NCBI GenBank assembly: GCA_018716115.1 | Contig: DVKF01000005.1 | Span: 397 to 64,396, forward strand | DNA: 64,000 bases | From: Candidatus Alloscybalousia intestinigallinarum | GTDB taxonomy: Bacteria > Bacillota_I > Bacilli_A > RF39 > UBA660 | Direction of reading: 5' to 3' | Shown here: one piece after another, positions 21,682 through 50,032 of the stretch | Layout: every line of letters begins with the position of its first letter | Numbering within the stretch: the stretch's first letter is position 1 | Made by a program: the position numbers and the translations under genes | Notes under the pieces: model-generated | Databases searched by the model: none | Told to the model about the DNA's origin: nothing | Seen by the model: the letters and a program-made list of their open reading frames with translations, nothing else

Positions 21682-21838
21682 CTATCCATCACCACAATCA
21701 CCTTAAAAGAAAAAGACAAGATTGTCAAAAGATAGAAAATGAAAAAGTGCAATGAAAAAAGAAAGAAAAAAAGAAAAAAAGGCCCAATTATAAAATTTTG
21801 AACCGTTTCTCTTCTACAATATAGAAAAACACTTTATT

Positions 21839-23980: not shown

Positions 23981-25299
23981 AGTTCAAAACTCGCAAACTC
24001 ATCACTTACTTCTTGATTCATAAAAGCCTGAGACTGTTGTTGAAATTCATCACTCTGAATAATAGTAAGTAAATTCTTTTCTGGATACTGATAAAGCGTA
24101 TTTAAAAGCTCAATAAAATCACGGATAATTTCTCGTGGCGTAATATTCGTTACCGCGCCAACTCGACTAAATTCTATCTGAATAAAACTAATTAATTCAT
24201 CTAAAGTAATTTTTCTCTGATATTGATATAAATCAGCATGGATATCGGCTAATTTTTCAACTAAAATCGTCATTTCAGACGGCGTTAAAGGTTTTAAGCG
24301 AATGATAGGCGCTAAAAAATCACGGGCTTCATCGTTTGCAAAACGACTATCCTCTAAACGAGATTTTAAAGCTTCATAACTGAAAATACCACGTCTCGTA
24401 TCTTCGACACATTGAGGAGTACCACCCATAATTACCCCTAAATACTCGGCTTTTCCTTGTAAAATATCATTATACATCGTCAAAATCTTTTCATAATTAT
24501 TCTGTCTTGCAACACTCATTGGAATCTTATATAAGTTAACGAGTTCATCGATCAATACTAACATGCCTTTATAACCAGCTTTTACCATGAAAACCGCTAA
24601 TAATTTTACATAGTCATACCAATTTTCATCAGTAATCATAATATTAACACCCAATAGTTCCTTACATTCACTCTTCGTCGTGATTTCACCACGAAGCCAT
24701 CTAAGTGCAGCTCCTTTTTTCTCGTCGTCTCCTTCTTTATAACCATTCCAATAAGTCAAGATAATTTTCGCAAAATCAAAACCATGAACCATCCCCTCTA
24801 CCTGACTAACTACTCGGTAAATTTCTTTTTCTACTTGCTCTGAAAATTTAGGATCATCAACTTTAAGATCACCATTCATCAATACATCATTCTGAATAGA
24901 AGAAATCCATTTTTCTAAAATAAGAGGTAAGGCTCCACCATCTGGTTTTGTCTTGGTCGACATATTCCGAACCAATTCTCGGTAAGTCGCTAAACCTTGC
25001 CCTTTCGTTCCCGTTAGCCTTCTTTCCGGGGATAAATCGGCATCCATGACCACAAAGCCTTTATCCATCACATGATTTCTAATCATCTGTAACAAAAAGC
25101 TCTTTCCACTACCGTACTTTCCTACAATAAAGCGAAAAGTTGCGCCACCTTCTTCAATAAAATTAACATCATTAAGTAAAGCATTAAGTTCCTTTTCTCT
25201 TCCTACCGCAATATAACCTAATCCTGTTCTAGGAACAACCCCGCCCTTTAAAGAATTTAATAAAATCGTTGCGATTCGTTTTGGCACTTTACCATTCAT
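23977..25299 (-). CDS. P-loop ATPase (SngB-like, DUF2791-type).
   Basis: Walker A is VGKYGSGKSF. Walker B is MLVLIDELV. The gene lies in an operon between the TerB-type protein and the helicase. Confidence 0.65.
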   Translation of the reverse strand: MNGKVPKRIATILLNSLKGGVVPRTGLGYIAVGREKELNALLNDVNFIEEGGATFRFIVGKYGSGKSFLLQMIRNHVMDKGFVVMDADLSPERRLTGTKGQGLATYRELVRNMSTKTKPDGGALPLILEKWISSIQNDVLMNGDLKVDDPKFSEQVEKEIYRVVSQVEGMVHGFDFAKIILTYWNGYKEGDDEKKGAALRWLRGEITTKSECKELLGVNIMITDENWYDYVKLLAVFMVKAGYKGMLVLIDELVNLYKIPMSVARQNNYEKILTMYNDILQGKAEYLGVIMGGTPQCVEDTRRGIFSYEALKSRLEDSRFANDEARDFLAPIIRLKPLTPSEMTILVEKLADIHADLYQYQRKITLDELISFIQIEFSRVGAVTNITPREIIRDFIELLNTLYQYPEKNLLTIIQSDEFQQQSQAFMNQEVSDEFASFEL

Positions 25300-25347
25300 C
25301 GTAAACCCTCCTTGTATATTTTTGTTTATTTCTTTTTGATTTTTCCT

Positions 25348-30708: not shown

Positions 30709-31464
30709 TTATAACTCTTGAATATATTTTTCCATTTTATCATATACAAATTTATAAATATCTTCCTCAGATACTACATCAATTAATCTTACGCTTGCGT
30801 ATAAAGATATATCTTTAGCTATTTCTTTGTAAATACTATTTTTCACCTTATTTCCATATTTGTCATATATATCTTTTTCCGCTTTTATTATACCTAATAC
30901 AATATGCTTTTCACTAGAACTTGAACGCCAAGTAAGATTTCTAAATCTTTCTGGATTTTCAATAACAAATCTTGTCAATTCATATTTGTCATCTAATCTT
31001 TCATCTACTGTAAGTGCAACTCTAAAATAACATCTTGATAATACTCCAAAAAATATACTTCTTCTATCGCTTTGACCAAATACCCAGTGGTTTAAAAATG
31101 TAGAATCTGACTTTACAGGCATAGCTTGAATTGCTGCTTTGTATCCTTTCTCAAAATTAACCCAAGCCCAAAATCTCTCATCAGTAAGTATATATAAAGG
31201 TAATTCTTTTAATGATTCATATAAAATTATAGAATTATCAAAATCAACTTCGTCATAATTACCATTTAAACTAACTTTTAATTCAAAATCATTTATTTTT
31301 TGTTTCATTGGTTCATATAGTTTTCCATTATATATCTTCTTTATCCATTCAGAATTGTTTTTTTCTGTTTTTAGATAATTATTAGCAGTTAAGCTATTAG
31401 ATTTCAATGTTGCTAGCGCTTCATCTGTCATAAATTCAATATTAATTTTATTATTCATCATCAT
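30709..31464 (-). CDS. Hypothetical protein, last gene of the island operon.
   Basis: The protein is 251 aa. Its start overlaps the upstream gene by 14 nt. The sequence is very AT-rich. Confidence 0.55.
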   Translation of the reverse strand: MMMNNKINIEFMTDEALATLKSNSLTANNYLKTEKNNSEWIKKIYNGKLYEPMKQKINDFELKVSLNGNYDEVDFDNSIILYESLKELPLYILTDERFWAWVNFEKGYKAAIQAMPVKSDSTFLNHWVFGQSDRRSIFFGVLSRCYFRVALTVDERLDDKYELTRFVIENPERFRNLTWRSSSSEKHIVLGIIKAEKDIYDKYGNKVKNSIYKEIAKDISLYASVRLIDVVSEEDIYKFVYDKMEKYIQEL

Positions 31465-32365
31465 TATCTCCTCTTACCAATTTACTAAATTCCTGTTTAA
31501 ACAAATCACTTATAGCTGTTACACTAGCATAATTCATTAATTGCTGAGATAATTCTACTACATTTAACTTTTTAAATTTATTTTCATCTAAATCTTCGTT
31601 AAATTGATTTTTATAAGCATATTCAATTGAGCCAAACCAACTATAATCGATATGTATATTATCCAAAGTAACTTCACCATATAACATTTGATCTTGAATA
31701 CTTTGTAAACAAGAAATTAATGCTGGTATTGTTAAAATTGAAAAAAATATTTCTTGATAATTATCATTATTTTTCATATTTTCATAACATCCAAATTGTT
31801 CCTCTGGCAAATGAATGACTATTTTTTTGCTAGTAGGTTCAATTTTCATCACATTATTACTAATGAATTCATCCTTTATTATAGAAAATATTGATGAAAC
31901 CTTTTTATCTTTACTTTCATCATATTCAATTTTTGTTGTAAAACCGTCATCTATTGCTAGAATATCATATTTTTCAATATTAAAAGTATAGCCTTGATAA
32001 TCTTCTAAAAAATCATCACTTATGTAAGAAAAATCTTCTGTAGCATAAACAAAACATGAAATAACTACCTGATCTCTTAAATTCATTACTGGTACAATTA
32101 TGTCTTTTGGATTTCTTGAAATTTTAAAACTTTTCCTGAAAATTGTTGAAGAACATTCAACTATTACAGTAGCATCAATTTTTCCTTGTTCAAATAATTC
32201 AATCAGTGTTTGATTATCTAATTCTATATGAGCATTTTTTAATACTAAGTTATTATCATCTTCTACATCATCATATATTAATGCAAAATTTGAATTTTGA
32301 AAGCAACTAGCATTTTTTGAATTATTAATTGTAGGATATGGAAATAATTTTTTACCTATTCGCAT
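31451..32365 (-). CDS. Hypothetical protein in the island operon.
   Basis: The protein is 304 aa. It overlaps the genes on both sides. Confidence 0.55.
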   Translation of the reverse strand: MRIGKKLFPYPTINNSKNASCFQNSNFALIYDDVEDDNNLVLKNAHIELDNQTLIELFEQGKIDATVIVECSSTIFRKSFKISRNPKDIIVPVMNLRDQVVISCFVYATEDFSYISDDFLEDYQGYTFNIEKYDILAIDDGFTTKIEYDESKDKKVSSIFSIIKDEFISNNVMKIEPTSKKIVIHLPEEQFGCYENMKNNDNYQEIFFSILTIPALISCLQSIQDQMLYGEVTLDNIHIDYSWFGSIEYAYKNQFNEDLDENKFKKLNVVELSQQLMNYASVTAISDLFKQEFSKLVRGDNDDE

Positions 32366-34253
32366 ACATTTTCACCTCAAAAGTATACAATTCTCTTAAA
32401 TCAGTATCAAGTTCTATTCTATACTTCTTACCTTCCTCTATTTTTATATTTTTTAATTTACTGTCCACAATATCTAACGGTATACCATTTACTCTACAAC
32501 CACTTATATTAATGTTATATCTAGTATTAGAATCATCCAAATATTTTAACTCTAATTCGCAATTATTTTCAGTATATAAAGATTCAAAAGAAATTATCAA
32601 TTTTCCAGATTTTTTATCAGGAACAAACAATCTGTATTGCATACCACTCAATTGTGCAAGTGTCATTATTTCTTTATCAGAATCTTCATTTGTATACCCA
32701 GTTTCATTATTAGAATCATGTGTATCACCACCTGATGAATTATTACTACCATTTGGAATTGGTGAGCCTTCACCATCTTCTTTATGATCACCTAATCCCG
32801 GTAAAAGAGAATTGCCTTCATCATCTGGTTTAATTCCAATTTTATCTTTAACCTTATTTTTTACTTTTTTAACAATTTTGGGTTTTTCTATTATGACATC
32901 TGCTTCTCCAGTTCCAATATTACTATCATCTATACCTGGTAAGTATTCACTAGCACCTTCTACATCAGTTTCTTTTATTCTACTTGTTGATAGTTTATCA
33001 TATACATAATTAATAATTGAATCATTTAAAGTCTTTAATATATGACGTAACTCACTTTTCAAATCATCATCATCAATTCTATTAATTTCCCAATTTGTAT
33101 GTTGTGGATTTTCAATATCTCTTAATAATGAATTTAAAGTGTTATCACCTATAATACACATTGCTGAACATGGAACGTTTGATATTCTTGGTAAAGTTTT
33201 TATTTTCATATATGGATATCTTATCATTACACATTCATTAGTTGCCAAATCAGATTCATCCTTACTAAAGCCCTTTAGCAAAATATCCACTTTACCATAA
33301 TCTTCTATCTCTAAAGTATTTTTAAATACGTCGGAATCAGTTAATAATATATATTGTGATTTAATATTATTGTAACTTCTTTTTAAGATATAATCATCAT
33401 TTTCAATTAATTCACCTAAATTATTCTTATTAATTGTTAAATCATCAACTACAATCTCAAGATCTTCATAATATATAGCACACATAAAACTATCTAATAT
33501 TTTTGTTATGAGTTCTTTTTTCCAATTATTATTTTTTCTAAACCCTAATATATAAATGTCCGTACCTGTTGTTTCCCTTTTATAAGACTTATCTAAATTA
33601 AAATCTTCAAGTATAGGCATATTTTTATTATCAAGTCCAAAATAACCGGTTCCCTGTGTTTTTTCATCAGTACCTTCCATTCTTGTCGAACACAATTTGC
33701 ATATACCTATATATCCTTTTTCACCATCCATATTTAATGTTGAATAAAAAACTGTATTAAATGAACTAGCAACAAAAGAAGCAAACTTACCTATACCTTT
33801 TGATCCACCTTTCGAACCATTCTTATCACTTATTCCAGTACCTCGTGTTAGAAGGTAGAATGGACTATCTTCTAAATCATTTATGCCTTTTAATCCAACA
33901 GTATTAAAGTCACTTACTCTAATACAATGTATAATACTATTATTTAAATTGTTCTTCATATTAGAAAGTGTTTGATATAACTTTGAATTGTTTTTTCTAT
34001 AATCAAGACATGAATTAATTTCCTTTTCTATCCTATCTACACCTGGAATTTCATTCCTCAGTATATCAAAAGTTTTAAATTCAATTCTTGCAGTTTCTCC
34101 AGCTATTCTTGCATCAATTGAATTTTGACATGACTCTCTAGCAAGTGATGCTATTGGATCTTGGGCAAACGTTTCCATATCCGGTGTATCTATTCCTTGC
34201 TCTTGAAGATAATTATTTCCTGGGAATCTCCACATTTTTTCTTTATCAAACAT
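32352..34253 (-). CDS. GHKL-superfamily ATPase (HATPase_c_3, MORC or MutL-like) with a ~350-aa C-terminal extension.
   Basis: The N-box is LARESCQNSIDA. The G1 box is TRGTGISDKNG. The G2 box is GSKGIGKFASF. Confidence 0.7.
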   Translation of the reverse strand: MFDKEKMWRFPGNNYLQEQGIDTPDMETFAQDPIASLARESCQNSIDARIAGETARIEFKTFDILRNEIPGVDRIEKEINSCLDYRKNNSKLYQTLSNMKNNLNNSIIHCIRVSDFNTVGLKGINDLEDSPFYLLTRGTGISDKNGSKGGSKGIGKFASFVASSFNTVFYSTLNMDGEKGYIGICKLCSTRMEGTDEKTQGTGYFGLDNKNMPILEDFNLDKSYKRETTGTDIYILGFRKNNNWKKELITKILDSFMCAIYYEDLEIVVDDLTINKNNLGELIENDDYILKRSYNNIKSQYILLTDSDVFKNTLEIEDYGKVDILLKGFSKDESDLATNECVMIRYPYMKIKTLPRISNVPCSAMCIIGDNTLNSLLRDIENPQHTNWEINRIDDDDLKSELRHILKTLNDSIINYVYDKLSTSRIKETDVEGASEYLPGIDDSNIGTGEADVIIEKPKIVKKVKNKVKDKIGIKPDDEGNSLLPGLGDHKEDGEGSPIPNGSNNSSGGDTHDSNNETGYTNEDSDKEIMTLAQLSGMQYRLFVPDKKSGKLIISFESLYTENNCELELKYLDDSNTRYNINISGCRVNGIPLDIVDSKLKNIKIEEGKKYRIELDTDLRELYTFEVKMYANR

Positions 34254-36753
34254 GATTTAACCTCCTTACTTCAAAATCAGTATTTGAATATTTATTTCCT
34301 GTATTAATTATTTCATAATCATCAGAATAAAACGTTCTCAATATTCCTATTAATAAATATTTGTTCCAGCCATATTTAATTTTAGGTAGTAGAGAATATC
34401 CCTTAAAATTTTCTGTATTTATAACTCCAAAATTATTTAAAATTAAATCAACAGATTTTTTAATATTTTCTAATTCACCTGAACAAATATTCAACTTATC
34501 TTTTTTTAACATTGTACTAATATCAATTTGAACATAATCATCACTCATATCTTCCATAAATTGCAAATAATTATATATACCGGTAATATTCATTTTTCTT
34601 TGATAATCTTGAATTGTTTTTATATTAAACTTTTCATATTTTTCAATGTAACTTCTAATAACAGTATAATTAGTATTAATAGATGTATCCTCATTACTTA
34701 TAAAAGGTCTATGATAATAATATTCTGGATACATTACCTTCATCATAGAAAACAATTGAAAATGTCCATTTTTAAGATTCAATTTTTTATATAATTCCTT
34801 ATTTGTTAATAATAATCTAGCATATATTTTTTTTGATGATAACAAATGAGAATTTAATAAACTAAATTGATTATCTATAAATTCTTTTAACTCTACTTTT
34901 GTTTTAGCATCTATATTTAATTTAAATAAATACACAAATTCATATGAAGAAATAAAAACTAAGCCATTATCTATTTCATTATATAAAATACTGTAAAGTG
35001 TATAATCCTTTACTCCTGGAAATTTTAATTTTAAACCATTTAATGTAAATTCATAATCAAATGATTTCATTAAATTTACTAGTTCATTAACAGGTGAAAT
35101 ATCTTTACTTCCATTAACAATATAATCTCTTTTAGAAATCATATCATCTGTTAATCTTTTATCAATACACCCTTTTAAATAATAGTGATTGTCAATGCCA
35201 AGTTTTAATAATTCTCTATTAAACTTTTCGTATATACTTCTATAATACACAAAATTATTTTCAGATATATAGTTTAAAATCTTATCCACTAATTCTTCTG
35301 GTAATTCAACGCAATATTTTTCTGACAAATATGTACCTCTATTTATTTGAATAAAATTACCCCTACCAATCATCGCTTCTATCGAATGTCTTGATGGTAT
35401 TTCCTCATCAATTCTATATTTATCTTTTGCTATTTCAACTAATTTATTGTAATCTTCATCTTCACCAACTCTATAACCATTTTGAAAATTTTTTTCCACA
35501 ATATCTAAATATAAATCCCTAGTGTTATAACCTTTCTTTATATATAAATTATTACTAATTTTCTTATAGTGATTTTCTAAAATTGATAGCATAAAGTCAT
35601 CAGCATCTGCTGTTTCATAATAATCAGCAACAATACCGATATCTTTTATAATATCATTAATCATTTCATCTATATTGTTAATTGTACTGTCATAAATAAC
35701 ATTATATTTTGAACAATACATTATTGGTAAATTGCCATATTCGTATAATAAAAGAATCTTGTTAGCTATATCAGAATCATATTTTTTAATTATTTGTGAC
35801 TTTGTAATATATTTGGTTTGGTTATTAGTCTCATTATGGAATATTGCTTTTAAAATATGCTCAATTTTAATTGCATTTTTTCTTATTTTTTGTAATGTTT
35901 TTGCTTCAATTTGTCTTATTCTTTCTCTCGTTAAACCATATCCTGATCCAATTTCCTCTAAAGCAAGTTTGTTATTAGAAATATATCCATTTCTCTTTAC
36001 AAGAATATCAAGTGATTTTGAATTTATTTTTACAAATGCATTATTGATAACCTCTTTAGTTGATTTTGTACATTCATTTATAACGTTTATTAAATTTGGA
36101 ATTTGTAAAGAAAATATTAGTAATATAAAATATTCCGAGCAATTCATTAAATCGTCTAAAGTAATTATTTGGTTTTGAAAAAGAATATTAGCTGTTGTAT
36201 CATTAAATTTAAAAATATCATTTAATGCCATCTTGTTATAGACATTATTGATTCTCGGTATATTCTTTTTCAAAAAATTATAATAATTATCAAATTCACA
36301 TAATAGATTGTATAAAACAGATTGTGCAAAATCAATTTTAATATTTTTTTCTTTTATATTTAAATTTAAATAGTCTTTCAGTTTATTTATAAATAAAATA
36401 TATGATATACATTCTTCTTTATTAACAGAGCTTACATTCTCTGATTCTGCTATTTCAATTAATGATAGAGAAATTATTATATTTTCTTTCTTATTTTTTG
36501 ATAAATTGAATTTACTTTTATACTTTTCACCTAAATAATCATCTATATATTTTTTTAACTGGGAAAACTTAATTGTATCTGACCCATATATATTAACTAT
36601 ATAATTAAAAATTCCTTGATAAGACGTGGGACCATTGTTATATAAAAATTTGGATATTATAAAATCAAAGTATTGTTTTGTATATTTATATAATTCACAT
36701 TCATTTATAATTAATCTGTTTTGATGGAACATTTGATTAAATTCATTTATCAT
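34246..36753 (-). CDS. Large hypothetical protein (835 aa) with an internal sigma-70 region-4-like HTH.
   Basis: The segment LALEEIGSGYGLTRERIRQIEAKTLQKIRKN matches the sigma region-4 signature. No other motifs were recognised. Confidence 0.6.
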   Translation of the reverse strand: MINEFNQMFHQNRLIINECELYKYTKQYFDFIISKFLYNNGPTSYQGIFNYIVNIYGSDTIKFSQLKKYIDDYLGEKYKSKFNLSKNKKENIIISLSLIEIAESENVSSVNKEECISYILFINKLKDYLNLNIKEKNIKIDFAQSVLYNLLCEFDNYYNFLKKNIPRINNVYNKMALNDIFKFNDTTANILFQNQIITLDDLMNCSEYFILLIFSLQIPNLINVINECTKSTKEVINNAFVKINSKSLDILVKRNGYISNNKLALEEIGSGYGLTRERIRQIEAKTLQKIRKNAIKIEHILKAIFHNETNNQTKYITKSQIIKKYDSDIANKILLLYEYGNLPIMYCSKYNVIYDSTINNIDEMINDIIKDIGIVADYYETADADDFMLSILENHYKKISNNLYIKKGYNTRDLYLDIVEKNFQNGYRVGEDEDYNKLVEIAKDKYRIDEEIPSRHSIEAMIGRGNFIQINRGTYLSEKYCVELPEELVDKILNYISENNFVYYRSIYEKFNRELLKLGIDNHYYLKGCIDKRLTDDMISKRDYIVNGSKDISPVNELVNLMKSFDYEFTLNGLKLKFPGVKDYTLYSILYNEIDNGLVFISSYEFVYLFKLNIDAKTKVELKEFIDNQFSLLNSHLLSSKKIYARLLLTNKELYKKLNLKNGHFQLFSMMKVMYPEYYYHRPFISNEDTSINTNYTVIRSYIEKYEKFNIKTIQDYQRKMNITGIYNYLQFMEDMSDDYVQIDISTMLKKDKLNICSGELENIKKSVDLILNNFGVINTENFKGYSLLPKIKYGWNKYLLIGILRTFYSDDYEIINTGNKYSNTDFEVRRLNHV

Positions 36754-36974
36754 AATTCCACCCTCTTTTGTCCTTTTTTCTTATCCTTATCAAATAATTC
36801 TTTTTGTTTATCTAATTCATTTTGAATCAGATTAAATATTTCATCTATTTGATCATCAGTATATTCATAAAATGAAGTATTAGATAAATTATGTAATTTT
36901 GAAATTAAATCTACTATTTTATTTACTCTATTGTTAGCAATTCTTTTAAAATTTTCTTGCTTGATATTATTCAT
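36750..36974 (-). CDS. Small protein (~74 aa) and first gene of the five-gene core. I chose the start at MNNIKQ because it has a GGAGGT RBS.
   Basis: The ORF-track frame was trimmed to the ATG with a good RBS. A TTGACA -35-like hexamer lies upstream. Confidence 0.45.
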   Translation of the reverse strand: MNNIKQENFKRIANNRVNKIVDLISKLHNLSNTSFYEYTDDQIDEIFNLIQNELDKQKELFDKDKKKGQKRVEL

Positions 36975-37073
36975 ATAATACCTCCAAATCAATCTTAGGG
37001 TATCACAAAAATATAATATTGTCAAAATATTTTTAAAATATTATTAAAATGTTATACAAAAAAAAGAGTATTT

Positions 37074-37964
37074 CTACTCCTCATTGTTTGAGTTTAACTC
37101 AATTTTATAATTTGTAAAAGCTATCTCAGTCGACGAAAATAGTTTTATAGGATTGATTGTACGCAAGATTTCCTTCATGTTATTTTTTATAAATTTGCCA
37201 TATATTTCATCTGCTTGTTTTGAATCTGACATCGATATCATTATGTATTTTCCTTTTAATTCAGTAATTGTTCTTACAAATAATTTGTGATCAAATATAT
37301 CTTTTGTATATAGTTCTTGTTTTTGACTTACTAATGAATCATCTGGTAAATAAGGTGGATCAAAATACATGAAACTATTATCTATTTTTCCATCTTCTTT
37401 CATTTTATTTAAAAAGGTTTTATAATCTAAATTATAAAAATTTACAGGTTGAATTAATTTTGATAGTTCCATCAAATAATCAGCATTTAATACTATTTTT
37501 TCCTTTCGCCCAAAAGGGACATTAAACTTACCCGCTTTATTTTCTCTATAGACACCATTAAATCCCGTTTTCATTAAGAAATAGAACAATATTGACTTAT
37601 TATCTAAATCTTTTTCTTCATTAAATTGCATTCTTAACTCATAATAGTACTCTTCTTTTTTAGGCGTATCATAATTATTATATACTTCTACTAACTCTCC
37701 TATTTGTTTTATAATATGATGTGGATTATTTTGAAGAAGCTTATAAAAATTTATTATATGTGGATTAACATCATTAACATAAAAGTTTTTATAATTTAAT
37801 GTATTATTTTTTTTTAGTACATTTATAAGCACAACGCCAGAGCCAAGAAAGCATTCTATATAGTTTTCTCTATTAGGTTTAAAAGCATTTAACATTTCAA
37901 CTAATACTTTTTTCTTTGAACCAGCCCACCTAATAGGAGAATTTAAGACCTTACCAGCTATCAT
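37074..37964 (-). CDS. Dam-class (D12) N6-adenine DNA methyltransferase.
   Basis: The N-terminal motif is NSPIRWAGSKKK. The FxGxG motif is ECFLGSGVV. The catalytic motif is DPPY (MYFDPPYL). Confidence 0.9.
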   Translation of the reverse strand: MIAGKVLNSPIRWAGSKKKVLVEMLNAFKPNRENYIECFLGSGVVLINVLKKNNTLNYKNFYVNDVNPHIINFYKLLQNNPHHIIKQIGELVEVYNNYDTPKKEEYYYELRMQFNEEKDLDNKSILFYFLMKTGFNGVYRENKAGKFNVPFGRKEKIVLNADYLMELSKLIQPVNFYNLDYKTFLNKMKEDGKIDNSFMYFDPPYLPDDSLVSQKQELYTKDIFDHKLFVRTITELKGKYIMISMSDSKQADEIYGKFIKNNMKEILRTINPIKLFSSTEIAFTNYKIELNSNNEE

Positions 37965-38027
37965 TTTGACCTCCTATTATTTTATTAAATTATACCATTA
38001 TTTTCTTGTTTTTAAAATATTTTTATG

Positions 38028-38867
38028 TTAAGTAAATAATTCTTTTACAATTAAATCTTCAGAGTGCAAATTATTATTTTTACCTAATAATAAATTCTCA
38101 TAAAATTTAATTAAATAAATTTTATCTTCTTTTATATTTAAATAATTATTGAAATAATTACTTCTAACTAGCGCATTTCTAAAATATACTGATTTATCTT
38201 TAAATAATGAATTATCTACATCGTATCCTAAACTGATTAAATATTTTTCTATGAATACTGCTGTTGTTCTAGTGTTGCCTTCTCTAAAGGGATGTACTTG
38301 CCATATACTAGATGTAAAATCAGTAATATTTTTAATCACGTCTACAATATTCATATTTTTGTAGTCTTTCTCTTTTTCTAGACTAATATCGTATTCTAAG
38401 GATTCAGTTAGGGTTTTAGAGTCTCCATAAGCAACTGAATCATTATTTAATATTTTTTCATGTTTAGAAAAATCAATTTTTCTAAACTCTCCTGCAAATT
38501 CATATACATCTTGGAATAAATATTTATGAATATATTTTAGATAATCTACTGATAATCCAAAATTATCTTGATCTAATAATTCAACAATTCTCATAGATAC
38601 AAAGTCACATTCTAATTCATTATGATTAATATCTTTTTGTTGTTCTTTTGTAGTGTAATACTCCCTTAAACTTTGTTCTACTTCTTTGATTGTTAATTCA
38701 CCTAAAATGTTTTTTTCTTTTATTTGTTCCAAGTATTTAGATGGTTTTAAGTTATCTACTTGTTGTAATCCTATTGCCATATCCCATTGTAATTGTTTTA
38801 TATAACCTTTAGGTTTTTGTTCTTCTTGATATGGATTCATACTAGAATCTAAATCTTTTTCACTCAT
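38028..38867 (-). CDS. Fic/Doc family protein with a degenerate Fic motif HPFREGNTRTT.
   Basis: HPFxEGN-x-R was read at about residue 190 and follows the Fic core layout. The canonical HPFx[DE]GNGRxxR has the second Gly replaced by Thr and the final Arg by Ala. Confidence 0.7.
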   Translation of the reverse strand: MSEKDLDSSMNPYQEEQKPKGYIKQLQWDMAIGLQQVDNLKPSKYLEQIKEKNILGELTIKEVEQSLREYYTTKEQQKDINHNELECDFVSMRIVELLDQDNFGLSVDYLKYIHKYLFQDVYEFAGEFRKIDFSKHEKILNNDSVAYGDSKTLTESLEYDISLEKEKDYKNMNIVDVIKNITDFTSSIWQVHPFREGNTRTTAVFIEKYLISLGYDVDNSLFKDKSVYFRNALVRSNYFNNYLNIKEDKIYLIKFYENLLLGKNNNLHSEDLIVKELFT

Positions 38868-42225: not shown

Positions 42226-44964
42226 TTAATTACGATTATTGGTTTCTTCTTCACGAATAATATCTTTAAATTTCTGATCGAAACGAACTAACTCTTTTTT
42301 TATTACATCAGGATAAATATTCTTTGAATTTTCGATTGCTTTTCTAACATCGATAATCGTAACTTCTTTTCGATTAGCAAAAACAGCTTGAGAAAACGCT
42401 TGAGCAAGTAATGTTAAACAAATATCTGGATATCGTGAACCAATTCCATAAATTCGTTTATACTCCGAAGTAATATCGACAATAAAAGCCATAATTTCTG
42501 ATTGAACAAACTGGGTATACTTTAATTTCGCTCCGGTAGTCTTTTCAATCTTAGGTAAAGTACCCATTAAAATCTTAATGGTCATCTCACGATCAGGTTC
42601 AGATACATCTACTTTTTGAAAACGTCTAACAAAAGCTTTATCCCGTAAAATATAGCGTTCATACTCTTCCGTTGTTGTGGCACCAATCACTTTGATACTA
42701 CCACGACCTAAACTTTCCTTAAACATATTCGCAAAATCCATAGCTGATTCATTAGTAGAACCAATCAACATATGAATCTCGTCAATAAAGAGAATAATTT
42801 TTTCCAATCCTTTAAGTTCATCCACCAAAGTCTGTAACCTTGTTTCTCCTGTTGGCAAAGTACCAAGTAAAGAAGGTGTTTTTACACTGACAATACAGTA
42901 GCCTTTCAAAGCATCTGGAACATTATCTCTTTGTAATTGGTAAGCTAATCCCTCCACTATACTAGTTTTACCAATACCAGGCTTACCAACCAATATACCT
43001 GACTTTTCTGGAGTTAACAAAATCAAAATTAATTGCTTAATTTCTTCCGCCCGACCAATTGCGGGATTGGTAATATATTCTTTAGCACAAAAATCTTCAC
43101 CATAACGAGCAAGAATACTTATTTTTCCTTCTTGATTCGCCTTTTCTCTTAATTTTGGTAATAAATCAGAAAGATGCACTTGAACATTAGCAAAACTTTG
43201 ATCATAATCAAAATTATCCTTTTTTTCATCATAAACATTAGTTGGTGCTTCCTCTTCTACTTTCTTTTCTTCTTTTATTGGCTCCATTCTAAAGTTCACT
43301 CCCGGATTTGCCTTAGGATCAATAGGAACGACTACCGAATCCAAATCAGGAACACCAACAATTTGTTCGATCAAATCTTGAATACTTTTTACTTCAGAAG
43401 GAGGTGTCTCATCCTGTTTTAATTGTTGATCAATATTAACAATACCGGTATCTGATTGTTCTGAAGAAGAGATAGAGTTATCAGAATCATTATGCGAATC
43501 AAAATCAGTACTTACCTTCTCTTTAGTATTCTCCTGAATATCGCCAACCGGTACTGAAGCGGAAGTAGATTCTATAGGAGTAGAAGAAGGAGAGCTTGGG
43601 GAAAAAACATTTTTTGGCTTCTCTCTTTTTTCCCGAACAATACTTTTTCCACCAGCTTTGTAAATCAACTCGGTTTCTGGTTCATTCTTTTTAAATAAAT
43701 CATATCCTTGTTGGGCAGCTTCAATTTTCTTTTTTTCTTCTTCTTCCTCTTGTTTTCTACGTATTAATTCTTTTTCAAGCTCTTCATTAACTCCCGTTGC
43801 GATATTTAAATCATCAGTTTTTACCGTACCAGACATAAAATCAGGTACAACCAATTGTTGAAATGAATTTTTATCCGCTTCTACTCTAACATTTTGCTCT
43901 TGATTCGTTATAAATTGTGTCGGAGTACTAGCATTACGAAAAGAAGAAAAATCTAAAATATTAGCATTCTTTTGATCATACTGAACATTCTTTTCTGCCG
44001 CAGGAATTTCTTCCTTCTTTAACAAGAAGTCGATCGGAGCTTTCTCTTCCTCTTTCTCTTGTTGAACAAATACAGGTGCCGAAGCTTTAGTCGGTGTATT
44101 ATCTTTCGCACCAACTACGGGCTCATCAGGAACAATAGTATCCGTAAAACTAGTACTATCATTAAAATTATATTCTTTATTTAATTCTGATACCGCAGTA
44201 TTAAATTCAGGAGTAGAAACTCCGACTGTAGTAACACTAGGTGGATTAGAGGCTTCCTCACGATTGAAAGAAGATGAATCCCGTGACTGAGCATCTACGA
44301 AAGTAGGTATTTCAGGAGGAGTTTGAATATCATCCTGAGATTGAGAAGGTACCGAAGAAGGAAACGAATTTGCATCTGGTAAATTCTGTTCTTGAGCATC
44401 ACTTTGAACTGGTGAAAAATCTCCAACATGAACGACTTCTAAATTAGGAGTCGTTTTCTTTTTCTTCGTAAATTTATCTTCTAAAGTATTCAAAAAAGAT
44501 TTTTTGTTATGATCTGCCTGCGCAATAGCCACAGAATCAAAGGCAGTATCTTCAACTACTGGCTTATCCTCTTTTAAATCAGTATGAGCATTATGACCAA
44601 AAAAGTCAAATACGTTCTCATTTGCACTGGATGGTTGATCGTAGTGATTATGAACTACTTGTTCAAAACTACTAGCTTGAGAAACATTCGGATTATCGGT
44701 TGTAAAATTACTAGCATTATAAACCGGTGTCGATGTTGGGGTTGAAGAAACAGCTGGTGCCGGTTTGGATTGCCCACTAGAGGCAATATCCATTAATGAA
44801 GGTCCTATAGATTGAACAGGAGCATCGACTGGCTTAATTGGAGCTTCTGCTTCAGAAGATGCAATAGAATCATAATAATCATCAGAAAAAATAAAACGAT
44901 TTTGTCTTTTCGTATTCCCGTTATCAGACTGTGAAGAAAAACCAAAGTCCATATTATTATCCAT
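42226..44964 (-). CDS. AAA+ ATPase with a ClpA/ClpB D1-type domain only, preceded by a ~600-aa low-complexity N-terminal region rich in S/T/P/E/D/N/Q.
   Basis: The C-terminal 300 aa align by eye to Clp D1 (GRAEEIKQLI..LVGKPGIGKTSIVEGLA...ILFIDEIHMLIG...GATTTEEYERYILRDKAFVRRFQKV). No D2 domain is present. Confidence 0.65.
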   Translation of the reverse strand: MDNNMDFGFSSQSDNGNTKRQNRFIFSDDYYDSIASSEAEAPIKPVDAPVQSIGPSLMDIASSGQSKPAPAVSSTPTSTPVYNASNFTTDNPNVSQASSFEQVVHNHYDQPSSANENVFDFFGHNAHTDLKEDKPVVEDTAFDSVAIAQADHNKKSFLNTLEDKFTKKKKTTPNLEVVHVGDFSPVQSDAQEQNLPDANSFPSSVPSQSQDDIQTPPEIPTFVDAQSRDSSSFNREEASNPPSVTTVGVSTPEFNTAVSELNKEYNFNDSTSFTDTIVPDEPVVGAKDNTPTKASAPVFVQQEKEEEKAPIDFLLKKEEIPAAEKNVQYDQKNANILDFSSFRNASTPTQFITNQEQNVRVEADKNSFQQLVVPDFMSGTVKTDDLNIATGVNEELEKELIRRKQEEEEEKKKIEAAQQGYDLFKKNEPETELIYKAGGKSIVREKREKPKNVFSPSSPSSTPIESTSASVPVGDIQENTKEKVSTDFDSHNDSDNSISSSEQSDTGIVNIDQQLKQDETPPSEVKSIQDLIEQIVGVPDLDSVVVPIDPKANPGVNFRMEPIKEEKKVEEEAPTNVYDEKKDNFDYDQSFANVQVHLSDLLPKLREKANQEGKISILARYGEDFCAKEYITNPAIGRAEEIKQLILILLTPEKSGILVGKPGIGKTSIVEGLAYQLQRDNVPDALKGYCIVSVKTPSLLGTLPTGETRLQTLVDELKGLEKIILFIDEIHMLIGSTNESAMDFANMFKESLGRGSIKVIGATTTEEYERYILRDKAFVRRFQKVDVSEPDREMTIKILMGTLPKIEKTTGAKLKYTQFVQSEIMAFIVDITSEYKRIYGIGSRYPDICLTLLAQAFSQAVFANRKEVTIIDVRKAIENSKNIYPDVIKKELVRFDQKFKDIIREEETNNRN

Positions 44965-45139: not shown

Positions 45140-46264
45140 TTATGGTCCTACCTGATCCTTATCTTTCCATAACAGTAAATCCTTAAAAGAATCAATTAAT
45201 AACTTTCTAGTATCTTTATCCATATGTCTATTCTCTTTTACTAAAGCAATTAACTTATTCACTTTCGTAATTTTTAATTCACTGAGTCCTTTAATACCTG
45301 CTCGTTCAAAAACAGAAAATAACGCTAGTACAATTTTTTCCCGTTTTTCATCATCATAGCGATAAATCCACCGCATAACCCGACGTTCGAACTTTTTACT
45401 TTTAGGAGATAATTTTCCCCTTAAAAAGCTATTCTTTCCAACTAACCAACTGACCCCATCATGTTGTAAGAACCCGCGATAACTACTCTTAACCACCACA
45501 TAATTTTCCGGATGTCTTAAAAGCATACCAACAACACTCTCTTCTGGAACAAACATTCGTAATTTTCTTAACATTTGCCGATACATTTTAGATTCATGTT
45601 CTTTTTTTCGAAAACCAGGACCATCATTATTATAAATCTCTATAATCTTACGACGAGTCCAAAAATCACATAACATATACCCAGCCATCGCTAAATTACC
45701 GCCTTTAGAATGACCACCTATTCTTACTTTTGGTCCAAAAAAAGAGATTGTTTCATCTAAATAATCCGCAGCTTTTTGTTGCGCAACTACAGGAAATTGA
45801 TAAGATAATTTAAAATCTTCTTTCCAACCATAAATAGAATCATCAGTTCCCTCAAAAGCAATATAAATGGTACCATCACCTAATAACATAGACATGGCAC
45901 CAAACTGAGTGCGTTCTTCTACATCGTTGACATAATGATAAATCAAAATATCTTGATATCTTTTTGATGCCGCCATCAATTTAAAATAAGAGATAATTTT
46001 CTGAATGGAAGGTGCTGTTCGCAACTTCTTAATATCTTTTGGCGTATAACGGTTAAAGTACAAAGTAGCAAGCATTTTTAAAGATATCTTCTCTTTAGGA
46101 GAAAATGGCATAAACAGTTCAAAATCAATATAACTAAGTTCAGAAAGTAACAAATTATCTACTTCATTAAATGGCATTTCATCAAATGTTACATTTTTAT
46201 TTGCCTGTATATATTCACGTAATGTCATGATATTCCCCACATTTCCGTGAATAGTATAACACAC
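45140..46264 (-). CDS. Alpha/beta-hydrolase (lipase-like, Mbeg1/DUF2974-type).
   Basis: A GGHSKGGNLAMAGYM nucleophile-elbow motif is present. Confidence 0.55.
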   Translation of the reverse strand: MCYTIHGNVGNIMTLREYIQANKNVTFDEMPFNEVDNLLLSELSYIDFELFMPFSPKEKISLKMLATLYFNRYTPKDIKKLRTAPSIQKIISYFKLMAASKRYQDILIYHYVNDVEERTQFGAMSMLLGDGTIYIAFEGTDDSIYGWKEDFKLSYQFPVVAQQKAADYLDETISFFGPKVRIGGHSKGGNLAMAGYMLCDFWTRRKIIEIYNNDGPGFRKKEHESKMYRQMLRKLRMFVPEESVVGMLLRHPENYVVVKSSYRGFLQHDGVSWLVGKNSFLRGKLSPKSKKFERRVMRWIYRYDDEKREKIVLALFSVFERAGIKGLSELKITKVNKLIALVKENRHMDKDTRKLLIDSFKDLLLWKDKDQVGP

Positions 46265-46519: not shown

Positions 46520-46987
46520 ATGTATACAATCGGAGAAGTTTCTAAAATGGTAAATTTACCTATACCCACCCTTAGATACTATGATAATGAAGGACTATTA
46601 ACAGATATCGAAAGAGACTCATCAGGAATAAGAAAATTTAATGATAAGACGCTTGAATCGTTAAGAGTGATTGAATGTTTAAAAAAATCTGGTATGCAAA
46701 TTAAAGAAATCAAAGAATTTATGAAATGGTGTTCGCTTGGAGATCAAACAATAGCAAAGCGAAAAGAAATGTTTATTCGTCAAAAAGAACATATTGAACA
46801 AGAAATCAACGAATTAGAAACTGCTTTAGCGATGATCAAATTCAAATGTTGGTACTACGATGAAGCGTTAAAAGACGGTACAGAAAAAAGAGTAAAAAAA
46901 CTTGATCCTAATGACATGCCGGAAGAAATAAAGCAATTATTTGAACATACCCATCAACCATATCAAAAAGAGCCCATAACTAAATAA
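46520..46987 (+). CDS. MerR family transcriptional regulator.
   Basis: The N-terminal HTH is YTIGEVSKMVNLPIPTLRYYDNEGLL. Confidence 0.8.
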   Translation: MYTIGEVSKMVNLPIPTLRYYDNEGLLTDIERDSSGIRKFNDKTLESLRVIECLKKSGMQIKEIKEFMKWCSLGDQTIAKRKEMFIRQKEHIEQEINELETALAMIKFKCWYYDEALKDGTEKRVKKLDPNDMPEEIKQLFEHTHQPYQKEPITK

Positions 46988-47089: not shown

Positions 47090-47917
47090 TCATGAAGATA
47101 ATTTTTTTATCCATTCATGACAATCTGCATGAACAGCAATTGCCTTATTTTCTATCGAATAGAAAAAATCTAAATATTGATTATTGACTCTTACTAACCG
47201 TGTATCTAAAAACTCCAAAGTCATTTTCTCAAAAGGCAACCGAATAATACTTGGCGTATTAAACCCAACACCTAACTCCAATAATAAAAGTTTTCTATTC
47301 TTGTTTTCGCGAATAAACTGTTGATAATTACGATTTAGTCTTTGCCAATTATCATCCTCAACAAAAAATTCATTTTTTCTTAAATTGACATCCATTTTTT
47401 CACCACATCTTGGACAATAAGGGACAAGGTTAGAAGGAATTCTACAATCTTTATCTTCTTTTAACCATTTATTCACTAACTCTAAATCATCATAAAGCTT
47501 ACAATGACAACAAACCGCACACTGAATCTTAGATAAAGAGCCTTGTACTTCAAATACCTTTTCTTTTGAAAAACCAGCTTTTGAAAACTGTCCATCTACA
47601 TTAGTTGTAATGACAAAGTAATTTTTATCCTTTACTAACTGATATAAATTCTTATATGTATCCTTGGCATCAACATTATATAAATAATTAATATGCTTTG
47701 CCCAATAACTCCATCGTTCTTCTTCCGTTGAAAAAGAATAAAAAGAAGAAGTATACATATCCGTCATATGATACTTTTCTACAAGCTCAGGAAAATGTTC
47801 AGCAAAACCTTCTTTGCCATAGGAAATTCCCGCTGCGGTAGAAAGACCTGCTCCTGCACCGATAATAATGGCATCAGAATCATAAATTAATTTTTTTATT
47901 TCTGAATATTCGTTCAT
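47090..47917 (-). CDS. Sir2-family protein of the SirTM type, linked to a macrodomain gene.
   Basis: Motifs read are IIGAGAGLSTAAGI, ITTNVDGQ and a Zn ribbon CAVCCHC...CPRCG. The gene lies immediately downstream of a macrodomain gene and overlaps it slightly. Confidence 0.7.
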   Translation of the reverse strand: MNEYSEIKKLIYDSDAIIIGAGAGLSTAAGISYGKEGFAEHFPELVEKYHMTDMYTSSFYSFSTEEERWSYWAKHINYLYNVDAKDTYKNLYQLVKDKNYFVITTNVDGQFSKAGFSKEKVFEVQGSLSKIQCAVCCHCKLYDDLELVNKWLKEDKDCRIPSNLVPYCPRCGEKMDVNLRKNEFFVEDDNWQRLNRNYQQFIRENKNRKLLLLELGVGFNTPSIIRLPFEKMTLEFLDTRLVRVNNQYLDFFYSIENKAIAVHADCHEWIKKLSS

Positions 47918-48677
47918 AAATTTCTTGATCCTCCTCAGTAAATACATCAAAGATTACCCTATCCAAAGTTCCCGGATTATCTTTTAAAAATTCACATACC
48001 GTAGCTACGGCAATTTCAGCGGCTAATGCTTTAGGAAAATGAAAAACGCCAGTAGAAATAGAAGGAAAGGCAATTGTACGAATCTGCTTTTTTTGGGCTA
48101 ATTCTAAGCAAGAATAATAACAAGAACGTAATTTATCTTTATCCTCTTTCGTTACATGTCCACCAATCATTGGACCTACTGTATGAATAACGTACTGAGA
48201 GGGTAAATTATATGCGCCCGTTATTTTAGCCTGTCCCACCTTCTCTTCTTTACCATTCATCATTTCGTTACAAGAAAGACGAAGTCTAATCCCCGCATAA
48301 GTATGAATAGCATTATCGATACAAGAATGATTAGGAATAAAACAACCAAGTAAAGAAGTATTACCAGCATTGACGATGGCATCAACCTGAAGAGTAGTAA
48401 TATCACCACGCCATACACTAAGGACATGAAATTGATCTTCTATACAAGGAATTTCATCGATAACAGTTATCTTCTTCTCTTTAAGTTCTAATTGTAAAAG
48501 CTCGTCTTCTAACTTTAAAATATTTTCATCTAATGGGTATGGTGGCCTAATATTGACAATGCCTCGTAATAATTTTCTCTTTTCTCGATAATTTTGCGAA
48601 ATAAACAAAGAGAAAGATTGTTCAGCTTCTTGGCAAAAATAAGTAAGTAACTGATCAACTAACTGTTCTTTTTTCAT
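47880..48677 (-). CDS. Macrodomain protein (ADP-ribose binding or hydrolysing).
   Basis: Motifs read are GDITTLQVDAIVNAGN and GQAKITGAYNLPSQYVIHTVGP. Confidence 0.75.
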   Translation of the reverse strand: MKKEQLVDQLLTYFCQEAEQSFSLFISQNYREKRKLLRGIVNIRPPYPLDENILKLEDELLQLELKEKKITVIDEIPCIEDQFHVLSVWRGDITTLQVDAIVNAGNTSLLGCFIPNHSCIDNAIHTYAGIRLRLSCNEMMNGKEEKVGQAKITGAYNLPSQYVIHTVGPMIGGHVTKEDKDKLRSCYYSCLELAQKKQIRTIAFPSISTGVFHFPKALAAEIAVATVCEFLKDNPGTLDRVIFDVFTEEDQEIYERIFRNKKINL

Positions 48678-49000
48678 TTTTTCACATCCTGATCCTTATA
48701 TTTTTCGCCAAAAGCTCTCATACAATCTAAAACATCCCTTAATGCTTCCCCTTTTTCTGATAATGAATACTCCACTTTCGGAGGAACGACAGGATATACT
48801 TTTCTCTTAATTATACCGTCTCGTTCTAATTCTCTTAAATTTTCAGTAAGAACTTTAGCAGATATACCAACAACACTTCTAGAAAGTTCATTATAACGTT
48901 TAGTCCCGGTTAATAAATCACGTAAAATGATAATCTTCCATTTATTACTGATAATGGAAGCGGTATATTCAACTGGACAATTGGTATAGGTTTTCGCCAT
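48674..49000 (-). CDS. HxlR-type (MarR-like) transcriptional regulator.
   Basis: CPVEYTASIISNKWKIIILRDL...RYNEL is the HxlR signature. Confidence 0.8.
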   Translation of the reverse strand: MAKTYTNCPVEYTASIISNKWKIIILRDLLTGTKRYNELSRSVVGISAKVLTENLRELERDGIIKRKVYPVVPPKVEYSLSEKGEALRDVLDCMRAFGEKYKDQDVKK

Positions 49001-49092
49001 TTATTCATCAACTCCTACTCACATTATAAAGGATAACTTTCTATTTTGGTAGTACGCACCTTTTAGTAACTATAGAAAAAAAGTGAATGTAA

Positions 49093-49902
49093 TCACCTTT
49101 TATCACTTGAAAAAAAGAAACTTGCTGTCATTTCTAGATAATTCTTTCCGCTATAATTAGGAAACTCTTGTTCCATCTTTTGAATAAAACTAGAGGCACC
49201 TTTACAATCACTAGCTATATTTAATAACGTTTCAATATAAGCAATTTTTGTATCAACCGCACTGATTTCTTCTGGAACATAATGCGAAGTCAGAATAAGA
49301 CGATAATCTTTCTCCATATATTCTTTTAACGTCGCAATGATTTGATTAGCATGGCTAGCTCCTGCAACAATTGAATGACAAGTACTTCCTAACATATGCG
49401 TATAAATACAATTGATCTCTGGAATTTCTATATCGTAAGCATCCGCAGTAGGAATAATATTCAAGCGAATACCACCTAATGTAAATTCTCCCTGATTAAT
49501 ATAATCGGTTATATGATGGATTTCACAATCGAACTTTTCACCAAAGGATTCTGTAAATTGATCAATTAAAGCTTTACCACCACCTACATGGCCATACTCA
49601 TCTGCGTGATGAGTCGCATATTTTCTCGCATCTTTCAAAAAAGTTCCACCACCCATATGATAAGCAAGTAGTACTCCATCAATCGTTACGTCTAACGAAC
49701 GAATATAAGCTTCTAACTCCTCATTATTATCGTAAAATGTTGGTGACTCGATAACAATTAATCGATGATTTTTTTCTAATAAGATGACTTGGTCATTTAA
49801 CTCATCATTAGTACAATAATTATGTAGTTTCATAGAACCAAAATCATATACAAATACATTTCCTTTTGTTAATGGAATCGTTTTCATCTTTTTATTTTTC
49901 AC
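49093..49902 (-). CDS. Hypothetical protein, possibly a metal-dependent hydrolase.
   Basis: The protein is 269 aa and His-rich (THHADEYGH, EIHHITD). It has no clean HxHxDH motif. Confidence 0.3.
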   Translation of the reverse strand: MKNKKMKTIPLTKGNVFVYDFGSMKLHNYCTNDELNDQVILLEKNHRLIVIESPTFYDNNEELEAYIRSLDVTIDGVLLAYHMGGGTFLKDARKYATHHADEYGHVGGGKALIDQFTESFGEKFDCEIHHITDYINQGEFTLGGIRLNIIPTADAYDIEIPEINCIYTHMLGSTCHSIVAGASHANQIIATLKEYMEKDYRLILTSHYVPEEISAVDTKIAYIETLLNIASDCKGASSFIQKMEQEFPNYSGKNYLEMTASFFFSSDKR

Positions 49903-50032
49903 TCCTTTGTTTTTTCAAAGAAGGTCGTGCACGTTTCTTTGATAAATTCATTGTATGACAAAAAGATTGTTTTTAAAAGAATGCACTTTTTTGTAAGATA
50001 CTTACCAATTGGTAGAAATTTAAAAATGACAT

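Follow-up and report, generated by a model that had tools for sequence, protein, structure and literature searches.

The 64,000-nucleotide stretch of contig DVKF01000005.1 (Candidatus Alloscybalousia intestinigallinarum) analysed in this study, referred to below as the window, carries on its minus strand the gene cluster hxlR-macro-sirTM, which encodes a regulator of the HxlR/DUF24 family, a macrodomain protein and a Sir2-family protein. Judged from its sequence, the cluster is a real three-gene operon, in which the regulator is combined with a writer/eraser pair for protein ADP-ribosylation. The best explanation, held to be probable, is an autoregulated, stress-inducible operon encoding a 'lone' pair of a class-M sirtuin (SirTM) and a zinc-dependent macrodomain protein (Zn-Macro) that is independent of GcvH-L. 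The uncertainty of this explanation concerns almost exclusively regulation and physiology; what the two enzymes are contributes little to it.

Four co-directional minus-strand open reading frames (ORFs) are located within positions 47090-49887. The range given in the initial annotation of this DNA (47090-49000) was confirmed as that of hxlR, macro and sirTM, all on the minus strand, and the fourth ORF encodes an uncharacterised protein with a metallo-beta-lactamase (MBL) fold.

47090..47917, minus strand: class-M sirtuin SirTM of 275 aa, predicted to be a protein mono-ADP-ribosyltransferase (PF02146, QG motif, best PDB match 5A3A)
47880..48677, minus strand: Zn-Macro, predicted zinc-dependent protein-ADP-ribose hydrolase, 265 aa (PF01661, NF003163, 8RSI)
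48674..49000, minus strand: winged-helix regulator of the HxlR/DUF24 family with 108 aa, encoded by the operon's first gene (PF01638)
49093..49887, minus strand: MBL-fold protein 'Up264', 264 aa, predicted own transcription unit with a box upstream

The stop codon of hxlR and the start codon of macro share the sequence ATGA (4-nt overlap), and the macro stop codon (47880-47882) lies within sirTM, with an overlap of 38 nt for the ATG start at 47917; the overlap would be 71 nt with a TTG start at 47950. The ATG is favoured as the likely start because it follows a GAGGAGG sequence by 12 nt, and the resulting 275-aa product is the same as in public gene calls on 19 metagenomic contigs. The production of Zn-Macro and SirTM is predicted to be coupled translationally. 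The order noted initially, a macro gene followed by a Sir2 gene with a small overlap, was borne out. Clustering of homologous SirTM loci at 90% identity left 48 non-redundant ones (sampled loci carry numbers with the prefix L below); 39 of these have a macro gene within four genes of the sirtuin gene, so that the adjacency of the two genes is not due to chance. No terminator was recognised downstream of sirTM, where the sequence did not fold more stably than its shuffled versions (z = -0.23). With a GC content of approximately 31%, the host sequence is that of an uncultured, low-GC gut Firmicute, and the closest genome loci belong to metagenome-assembled genomes (MAGs) of uncultured Bacilli and to 'Firmicutes bacterium CAG:582'. 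The gene order around the sirtuin is the same in contig k141_87627 of ENA ERZ27234788, one of the 19 contigs, and the exact sirtuin protein was also called in run ERR3414575, the origin of a chicken-isolate MAG among the sampled loci.

The SirTM and Zn-Macro proteins

Searched as the TTG ORF (47090-47950), the sirtuin matched PF02146 with 41 bits (E = 2e-10). Its best match in the PDB is the SirTM of Streptococcus pyogenes (SpySirTM, 5A3A; E = 4e-49), followed by the Fusarium macro-SirTM fusion (8RSN; E = 7e-28), and ordinary sirtuins reached E-values of about 1e-5 only. The Rossmann NAD-binding motif is GAGAG (residues 20-24). At the position where HG is expected, Q125-G126 is found, aligned to the QG of SpySirTM (FEVQGS versus FHIQGE); QG in place of the catalytic HG is the defining feature of class M (PMC4518038). 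N106, located in ITTNVD (TTNVD motif), aligns to ITTNAD of 5A3A and corresponds to N118, the catalytic asparagine in SpySirTM. Together with QG and the zinc cysteines (C133/C137/C168/C171), it is invariant in 22 sirtuin homologues.

The public name of the homologues, 'NAD-dependent SIR2 family protein deacetylase', and the PDB label of 8RSI, O-acetyl-ADP-ribose deacetylase, would fit another kind of pair, namely a CobB-type NAD-dependent protein deacylase together with a MacroD-type O-acetyl-ADP-ribose deacetylase that clears its product. Such a pair is hardly conceivable here: the catalytic histidine is replaced by a glutamine that is invariant in the 22 homologues, all CobB/deacylase models of NCBIfam failed (28-55 bits with cutoffs of 221-395), published SirTMs show no appreciable deacylase activity (PMC4518038), and the macrodomain protein has the zinc loop of protein-ADP-ribose hydrolases. 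A CobB-type deacetylase identity was rejected on the QG motif and the sub-threshold NCBIfam scores. The initial annotation had placed the Sir2 gene in the SirTM class, an assignment upheld by the QG motif, the match to 5A3A and the CobB scores below cutoff; a grouping with CobB, named beforehand as the outcome that would speak against it, was not seen.

The 265-aa macrodomain protein matched PF01661 with 123 bits and passed the NF003163 model for protein-ADP-ribose hydrolases (334.8 bits, cutoff 272). Zn-Macros are defined by a Cx(4)HxC zinc loop and a Dx3H dyad (PMC11490716), which are present as C112-FIPN-H117-S-C119 and D121-NAI-H125, respectively. The NAAN position reads NAGN (residues 103-106), a single conservative substitution. 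The best PDB match is MorMacro (8RSI; E = 1.3e-75), followed by SauMacro (5KIV/8RSL) and SpyMacro (8RSM); the macro part of the fungal fusion 8RSN was matched with E = 3.4e-39. Approximately 100 residues are located N-terminally of the Pfam macro domain, and they align with MorMacro from residue 4, so that the N-terminal extension is included in the alignment; this stretch is the candidate for the three-helix bundle that is a further feature of Zn-Macros. Given the QG motif, the Cx4HxC and Dx3H motifs, the family scores and the nearest structures, the window encodes what is, at the level of sequence, a bona fide SirTM/Zn-Macro writer/eraser pair.

HxlR, the conserved boxes and the MBL-fold gene

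The product of hxlR matched PF01638 with 114.3 bits, residues 16-104 being covered. Its Cys8 is found in an N-C-P-V-E context (C8-P-V-E11), as is HypR's redox-sensing Cys14 in the peptide EGCPVEF, and it is conserved in 11 of 12 HxlR proteins encoded adjacent to SirTM. In Bacillus subtilis HypR, Cys14 is the redox sensor; this cysteine and the following glutamate are conserved in DUF24 paralogues, and DUF24 regulators sense diamide, NaOCl, quinones or aldehydes by thiol switches (PMC3351151). Pfam family and N-terminal CPVE cysteine are thus shared by the window regulator with HypR, YodB, CatR and HxlR of B. subtilis (PMC3351151).

Of the 176 ORFs located no more than three genes from SirTM, 10 were HxlR genes, compared with 3 of the 381 more distant ORFs of these loci (p = 0.0009 in a Fisher test uncorrected for phylogeny). 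Within four genes, HxlR was found in 16 of the 48 non-redundant loci, Methanobrevibacter included. It lies beside the pair in Bacilli, Clostridia, Bacteroidota and Methanobrevibacter, either upstream on the same strand, divergent, or downstream and convergent. In two Methanobrevibacter MAGs (L025, 7998-8381; L030, 8756-9130), an HxlR-family gene adjoins the archaeal Macro-SirTM pair, and the intergenic DNA contains palindromes of the GTTAC-N6-GTAAC type. Since HxlR adjoins the pair in these other loci of the genus, the published 'minimal operon' of Methanobrevibacter oralis may, by analogy, have an unnoticed regulator.

The intergenic DNA between the gene of the 264-aa MBL-fold protein and hxlR was aligned for six loci with protein identities of 59-70%. 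Three conserved elements were found, namely a hairpin with U-run, a box of approximately 23 nt and the hexamer TATAAT. Promoter, box and terminator were all missed when the intergenic regions were examined with simple scans for promoters and terminators and searched for inverted repeats; they were recognised through cross-locus alignment and folding. Together with the elements upstream of the MBL-fold gene, they are located as follows.

49023..49028, minus strand: TATAAT, -10 hexamer of the putative hxlR-macro-sirTM promoter, invariant in six aligned loci
49049..49071, minus strand: conserved box 1, AGTTACTAAAAGGTGCGTACTAC, putative HxlR operator over the -35 region (cross-locus alignment)
49076..49100, minus strand: terminator-like hairpin with U-run ending the MBL-fold gene, 9-bp stem (folding)
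49950..49955, minus strand: TACAAT, -10-like hexamer upstream of the MBL-fold gene, downstream of box 2
49977..50006, minus strand: conserved box 2, GGTAAGTATCTTACAAAAAAGTGCATTCTT, located at the MBL-fold gene as its putative HxlR operator (second core match in the window)

Box 1 is the most conserved intergenic block across the window's own locus (WIN), L006, L007, L043, L044 and L047. Its core, AAARGTGCRTWCT, has only two matches in the 64 kb window when one mismatch is allowed. The spacing of TATAAT to the box and to the start codon is constant in the six aligned loci, and since the hexamer lies approximately 20 nt downstream of box 1, the box overlaps the -35 position. For the hairpin, a folding energy of -10 kcal/mol was calculated (z = -4.8; 0 of 200 shuffles as stable), and an equivalent hairpin is found in the same place in L043, L044 and L006. 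Box 2 is kept upstream of the MBL-fold gene in L006, L007, L019, L043-50 and L074, and in L043 it is a perfect 13-nt inverted repeat (AAAAAGTAAGTAT / ATACTTACTTTTT). The spacing between TACAAT and box 2 is roughly that of TATAAT in homologous loci. The two-box layout also occurs in L006, L007 and L043-L050; in L054, where hxlR-macro-sirTM is found without the MBL-fold gene, the box precedes hxlR.

A relaxed form of the box gave 30 matches in 908 kb of related loci, compared to about 2 expected from a rough composition estimate, and all 30 are on the SirTM strand. In distant lineages, the boxes that were mapped head gene runs ending in Macro-SirTM or SirTM-Macro; several unassigned contigs are among them, as are loci labelled Roseburia (L017, L063), Ruminococcus (L019), Prevotella (L020) and Paenibacillaceae (L026). 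The conserved box is regarded as the putative operator of the HxlR-family regulator. It differs from the 7-2-7 repeat of HypR, GTATCAAAATTGATAC. Boxes located both at the regulator's own promoter and at a neighbouring effector gene correspond to the autoregulatory layout of the B. subtilis DUF24 systems.

A four-gene operon including the MBL-fold gene was considered and disfavoured, since the DNA between this gene and hxlR contains the conserved hairpin of a terminator as well as a boxed promoter of its own. A separate predicted transcription unit is favoured for the MBL-fold gene, although read-through may occur. According to the initial annotation, only an HxlR-type regulator was encoded together with the pair; the regulator was retrieved, and the 'only' does not hold, since the MBL-fold gene with the same box lies directly upstream (49093-49887).

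In a Pfam scan of the ORF 49093-49902, no domain was assigned and no MBL model of Pfam was matched. Its family comprises 457 proteins in the database, all without a Pfam domain. In a structure prediction based on an alignment of database homologues only, the 264-aa protein has the alpha-beta/beta-alpha arrangement of the MBL fold. The canonical metal motif HxHxDH was not found in it; the region reads YHMGGG, with H77 as the single histidine. Other invariant histidine and aspartate residues (H100, D120, H124, D152, H164, H171 and H202) suggest a putative non-canonical metal site. The MBL-fold gene adjoins HxlR-Macro-SirTM in the lineage of the window, is located directly beside Macro-SirTM without HxlR in L055, L056 and L074, and is found within four genes of SirTM in 6 of the 48 non-redundant loci. 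In L009 (uncultured Clostridia, chicken), C-terminal residues of the MBL-fold protein (…YPTYSGLNYLDMTAGYFFPQ) are encoded at approximately 9090-9160 upstream of macro, where no intact gene is present; this stretch appears to be a decayed remnant of an MBL-fold neighbour.

Lone pairs and their neighbours

The absence of GcvH-L and LplA2 beside the pair, pointed out in the initial annotation, was corroborated. PF01597 and PF03099 were found neither among the called genes in approximately 10 kb on either side of the pair (precomputed Pfam annotation) nor in the other ORFs scanned with Pfam at 4.3-40.4 kb, and six-frame phmmer searches of the whole 64 kb gave best E-values of 1.9 with E. coli GcvH and 1.7 with E. 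coli LplA. OYE and LLM oxidoreductases (PF00724, PF00296) were absent from the annotated genes of the window. Among the 48 non-redundant loci, which represent the clade of this sirtuin with the Streptococcus/Staphylococcus type left out, none has GcvH or LplA within four genes of SirTM. The accompanying statement that SirTM operons normally encode GcvH-L and LplA2 was not sustained, neither by this count nor by the literature: bacterial SirTM-macro pairs are found in independent operons or in extended ones, and the extended type is that of Lactobacillales and Staphylococcaceae (Rack et al. 2015, PMC4518038). In view of the published lone or minimal pairs and the 0 of 48 loci, pairs without GcvH-L and LplA2 represent a known, common configuration and no anomaly.

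The extended operon of S. pyogenes and Staphylococcus aureus consists of GcvH-L, Zn-Macro, SirTM, LplA2 and additionally OYE and LLM. With it, the window shares the QG sirtuin, the Cx4HxC macrodomain and the macro-then-sirtuin order with overlap, as well as the theme of oxidative stress and, in related loci, flavin oxidoreductases as neighbours; unlike in the extended operon, GcvH-L, LplA2, OYE and LLM were not detected in the window. Lone or 'minimal operon' pairs have been described for M. oralis (MorMacro, 8RSI), Enterococcus faecalis and Treponema pedis (PMC4518038; PMC11490716). Like these, the Zn-Macro and SirTM genes of the window are adjacent and overlapping, with no GcvH-L, LplA2, OYE or LLM detected, and MorMacro is the nearest among the solved structures to the window macrodomain. 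In contrast to the described minimal operons, the window pair is distal in an HxlR-headed operon with a box in front and a co-boxed MBL-fold gene upstream. The fungal macrodomain-SirTM fusion Mfs1 (8RSN), of a type implicated in the oxidative stress response, is homologous in both domains (E = 7e-28 for the sirtuin and 3.4e-39 for the macro portion), whereas the window has separate genes and a bacterial regulator attached. None of the characterised DUF24 regulons has been reported with an ADP-ribosylation writer/eraser pair, in which the window differs from them.

MorMacro, from a minimal operon, and the Zn-Macros of fusion proteins cannot demodify GcvH-L, and the targets of lone pairs and fusion proteins, as well as their physiological role, are stated to be unknown (Ariza 2024, PMC11490716). 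Because of the former observation, a lipoylation dependence of the window pair would, by analogy, not be expected. Both the operons and the fusions that encode SirTM are inducible by oxidative stress (PMC4518038, PMC11490716). The initial interpretation of the pair as having a different target or forming a redox-response module is consistent with this literature and with the context survey.

In this survey, PNPOx-like flavoproteins, often fused to 4Fe-4S domains, were found within four genes in 13 of 48 loci, Rrf2 regulators in six and NAD(P)H-binding proteins in five. A nitroreductase, a radical-SAM/SPASM protein, a quinone-reductase-like zinc alcohol dehydrogenase and a flavodoxin are encoded in box-headed runs of single lineages. 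The neighbours of lone pairs are of types typical for electrophile/redox detoxification. They parallel both the OYE/LLM flavoenzymes of the extended operon and the gene types usually under the control of DUF24 regulators; nitroreductase, flavin and quinone-reductase-type genes are found in the B. subtilis DUF24 regulons as well as next to window-related loci. At L053 (5001-5837, GCA_947629655.1), a SirTM homologue with 60% identity has no adjoining macro gene; a TetR_C_8 regulator comes before it and a cyclophilin-like protein after it, and it would be a writer without an adjacent eraser.

Several points weigh against a stress-inducible lone pair under the control of HxlR. About two thirds of the lone pairs have no HxlR nearby, so that HxlR is only one of several regulators used by them, the others being Rrf2, TetR and LysR. 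In L044-L046 (e.g. L044, 6001-7206), the MBL-fold gene and hxlR with both boxes occur without a downstream Macro-SirTM. MBL-fold gene and hxlR thus form a module that can exist apart from the ADP-ribosylation pair, and for the same reason the MBL-fold gene may be the primary job of HxlR, with macro-sirTM as a passenger. The -35 of the hxlR promoter is poor, which is why a simple promoter scan missed the TATAAT, the box before hxlR is not a simple palindrome, and the link between this HxlR and the boxes is a predicted one. The locus sample, drawn with peptide patterns of this sirtuin's clade, is biased and phylogenetically non-independent. The test for GcvH and LplA relied on single E. coli seeds and Pfam with no GcvH-L positive control, and only 64 kb were visible, so that GcvH-L or a lipoyl protein may be encoded elsewhere in the genome.

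Taken furthest, the separable module and the absence of an adjacent HxlR from most lone pairs would mean that HxlR serves itself and the MBL-fold gene only, macro-sirTM having no tie to thiol or electrophile stress. This is very unlikely, since hxlR is coupled to macro by the ATGA, HxlR is found beside the pair in at least four arrangements in distant taxa including archaea, the box heads Macro-SirTM runs even where hxlR is divergent or downstream, and the same redox-type neighbours are present where Rrf2 replaces HxlR.

For an operon regulated by HxlR, the question of the substrate follows. It could be encoded in cis, as the MBL-fold protein or HxlR, which would refine the preferred explanation and not exclude it; the operon would then be a self-contained switch for a detoxification enzyme, or the pair would feed back on the regulator post-translationally. 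The one SirTM substrate known so far is itself encoded in its operon, namely the extended one, the MBL-fold gene lies beside Macro-SirTM, with or without HxlR, in L019, L055, L056 and L074 (remnant in L009), and hxlR is translationally coupled to macro. A cis-encoded substrate is nevertheless considered unlikely, because neither candidate is universal (MBL-fold gene in 6 and HxlR in 16 of 48 loci), MBL-HxlR occurs without the pair, and the neighbours at other loci are different ones (PNPOx, nitroreductase).

Surroundings of the operon and its proposed function

Convergent to sirTM, a MerR-family gene is located at 46520-46987 (plus strand), whose best NCBIfam match, the NmlR stress regulator, is sub-threshold. 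This NmlR-like gene and an Mbeg1-like gene (45140-46264) were considered as partners and rejected, since they are found on contigs with the identical sirtuin only and in none of the diverged loci; the MerR-family gene is probably unrelated to the module. A 912-aa protein encoded at 42226-44964 (minus strand) combines a low-complexity N-terminal half rich in Ser, Pro and Asp with a C-terminal AAA+ ATPase and gave weak IetA-like matches in PADLOC (E = 2.6e-6). The spore-coat genes for CotJB and CotJC (Mn-catalase family) are located at approximately 40.4-41.96 kb, and on account of these two genes, which indicate endospore formation, the host is predicted to be an endospore former.

Farther from the operon, three consecutive genes (30709-34253, minus strand) match the PADLOC models PDC-M33 C, B and A (E = 8e-38, 1e-57 and 5e-140, respectively). 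Beside them, the minus-strand stretch 34246-38867 encodes an 835-aa protein with a sigma-70 region-4 helix-turn-helix as its sole recognisable domain, a D12-class N6-adenine DNA methyltransferase (37074-37964) and a Fic-domain protein (38028-38867) matching PDC-S72 of PADLOC (E = 3e-82). The GC content is 22-29% at approximately 28-38 kb and about 31-33% elsewhere in the window; this drop suggests that the stretch is a horizontally acquired defence island. What resembles a further cluster of the defence type is found at 19894-27015 (minus strand), where a run of genes encodes a UvrD-like helicase, a DEAD/ResIII helicase, an ATPase of the BrxC/BrxD family (PF10923, E = 9e-166) and a protein with TerB_N/TerB_C.

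With PDC-M33, Fic/PDC-S72, the BrxC/D-family ATPase and the TerB-domain protein in the same window, with genomic surroundings of the cluster that vary between genomes, and with a writer/eraser pair that formally resembles a toxin-antitoxin pair, the operon might be taken for an anti-phage or toxin-antitoxin-like, NAD-consuming Sir2 module, in which SirTM is the toxin and the macrodomain protein the antidote, as in DarT/DarG. This is highly improbable. None of the four cluster genes matches any PADLOC model, the family is biochemically one of substrate-specific protein ADP-ribosyltransferases, and its conserved neighbours are redox enzymes and regulators, not defence genes. Over 8 kb separate the defence clusters from the pair, with which they are not conserved, and a defence-system identity was rejected on this ground and on the missing PADLOC matches.

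The preferred explanation, an autoregulated operon for a lone pair, starts from gene identities, motifs, overlaps and coupling, boxes, terminator and recurrent neighbourhood, which were observed directly. In the scheme proposed here, the HxlR/DUF24 regulator would occupy the box over the -35 of its own promoter, with the second box in front of the MBL-fold gene. A thiol-reactive signal of the oxidant, quinone or aldehyde type would modify Cys8 and thereby change promoter occupancy, and the MBL-fold gene would respond via its own box. Binding of the box, inducer and direction of regulation are predicted parts of the scheme, as are catalysis and substrate in the steps that follow. Zn-Macro and SirTM, being translationally coupled, would then be made together. 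SirTM would use NAD+ to place mono-ADP-ribose on an acidic residue of a protein substrate other than GcvH-L, and Zn-Macro would strip the mark, which would make the pair a reversible switch in redox or electrophile stress.

A pairing of HxlR with SirTM, macrodomain or sirtuin was not found in PMC4518038, PMC11490716 or the top-ranked full-text literature matches. Judged by this literature, the recurrent coupling of lone pairs with HxlR, the conserved operator-like box and the uncharacterised MBL-fold partner family are new; the novelty is modest, and nothing established is overturned by the analysis of the cluster. GcvH-L is the only known SirTM substrate, and the question of substrate and physiology of lone pairs becomes more directly testable with the handles offered here, i.e. 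a predicted inducer class (thiol-reactive oxidants/electrophiles), a regulator and a short list of candidate substrates.

In a broader and tentative proposal, which is rather doubtful at present, lone pairs in general would be lipoylation-independent effectors of thiol/electrophile stress, wired to HxlR or Rrf2, with adjacent detoxification proteins or the regulator as substrates. If this is true, the candidate substrates would be the MBL-fold family for the window and, at other loci, PNPOx/FeS flavoproteins or nitroreductases, and reversible ADP-ribosylation would gate electrophile detoxification in lone-pair taxa ranging from gut Firmicutes and Bacteroidota to methanogens. Beyond pathogens, the survey places the SirTM/Zn-Macro system in abundant gut commensals that are uncultured and in methanogens.

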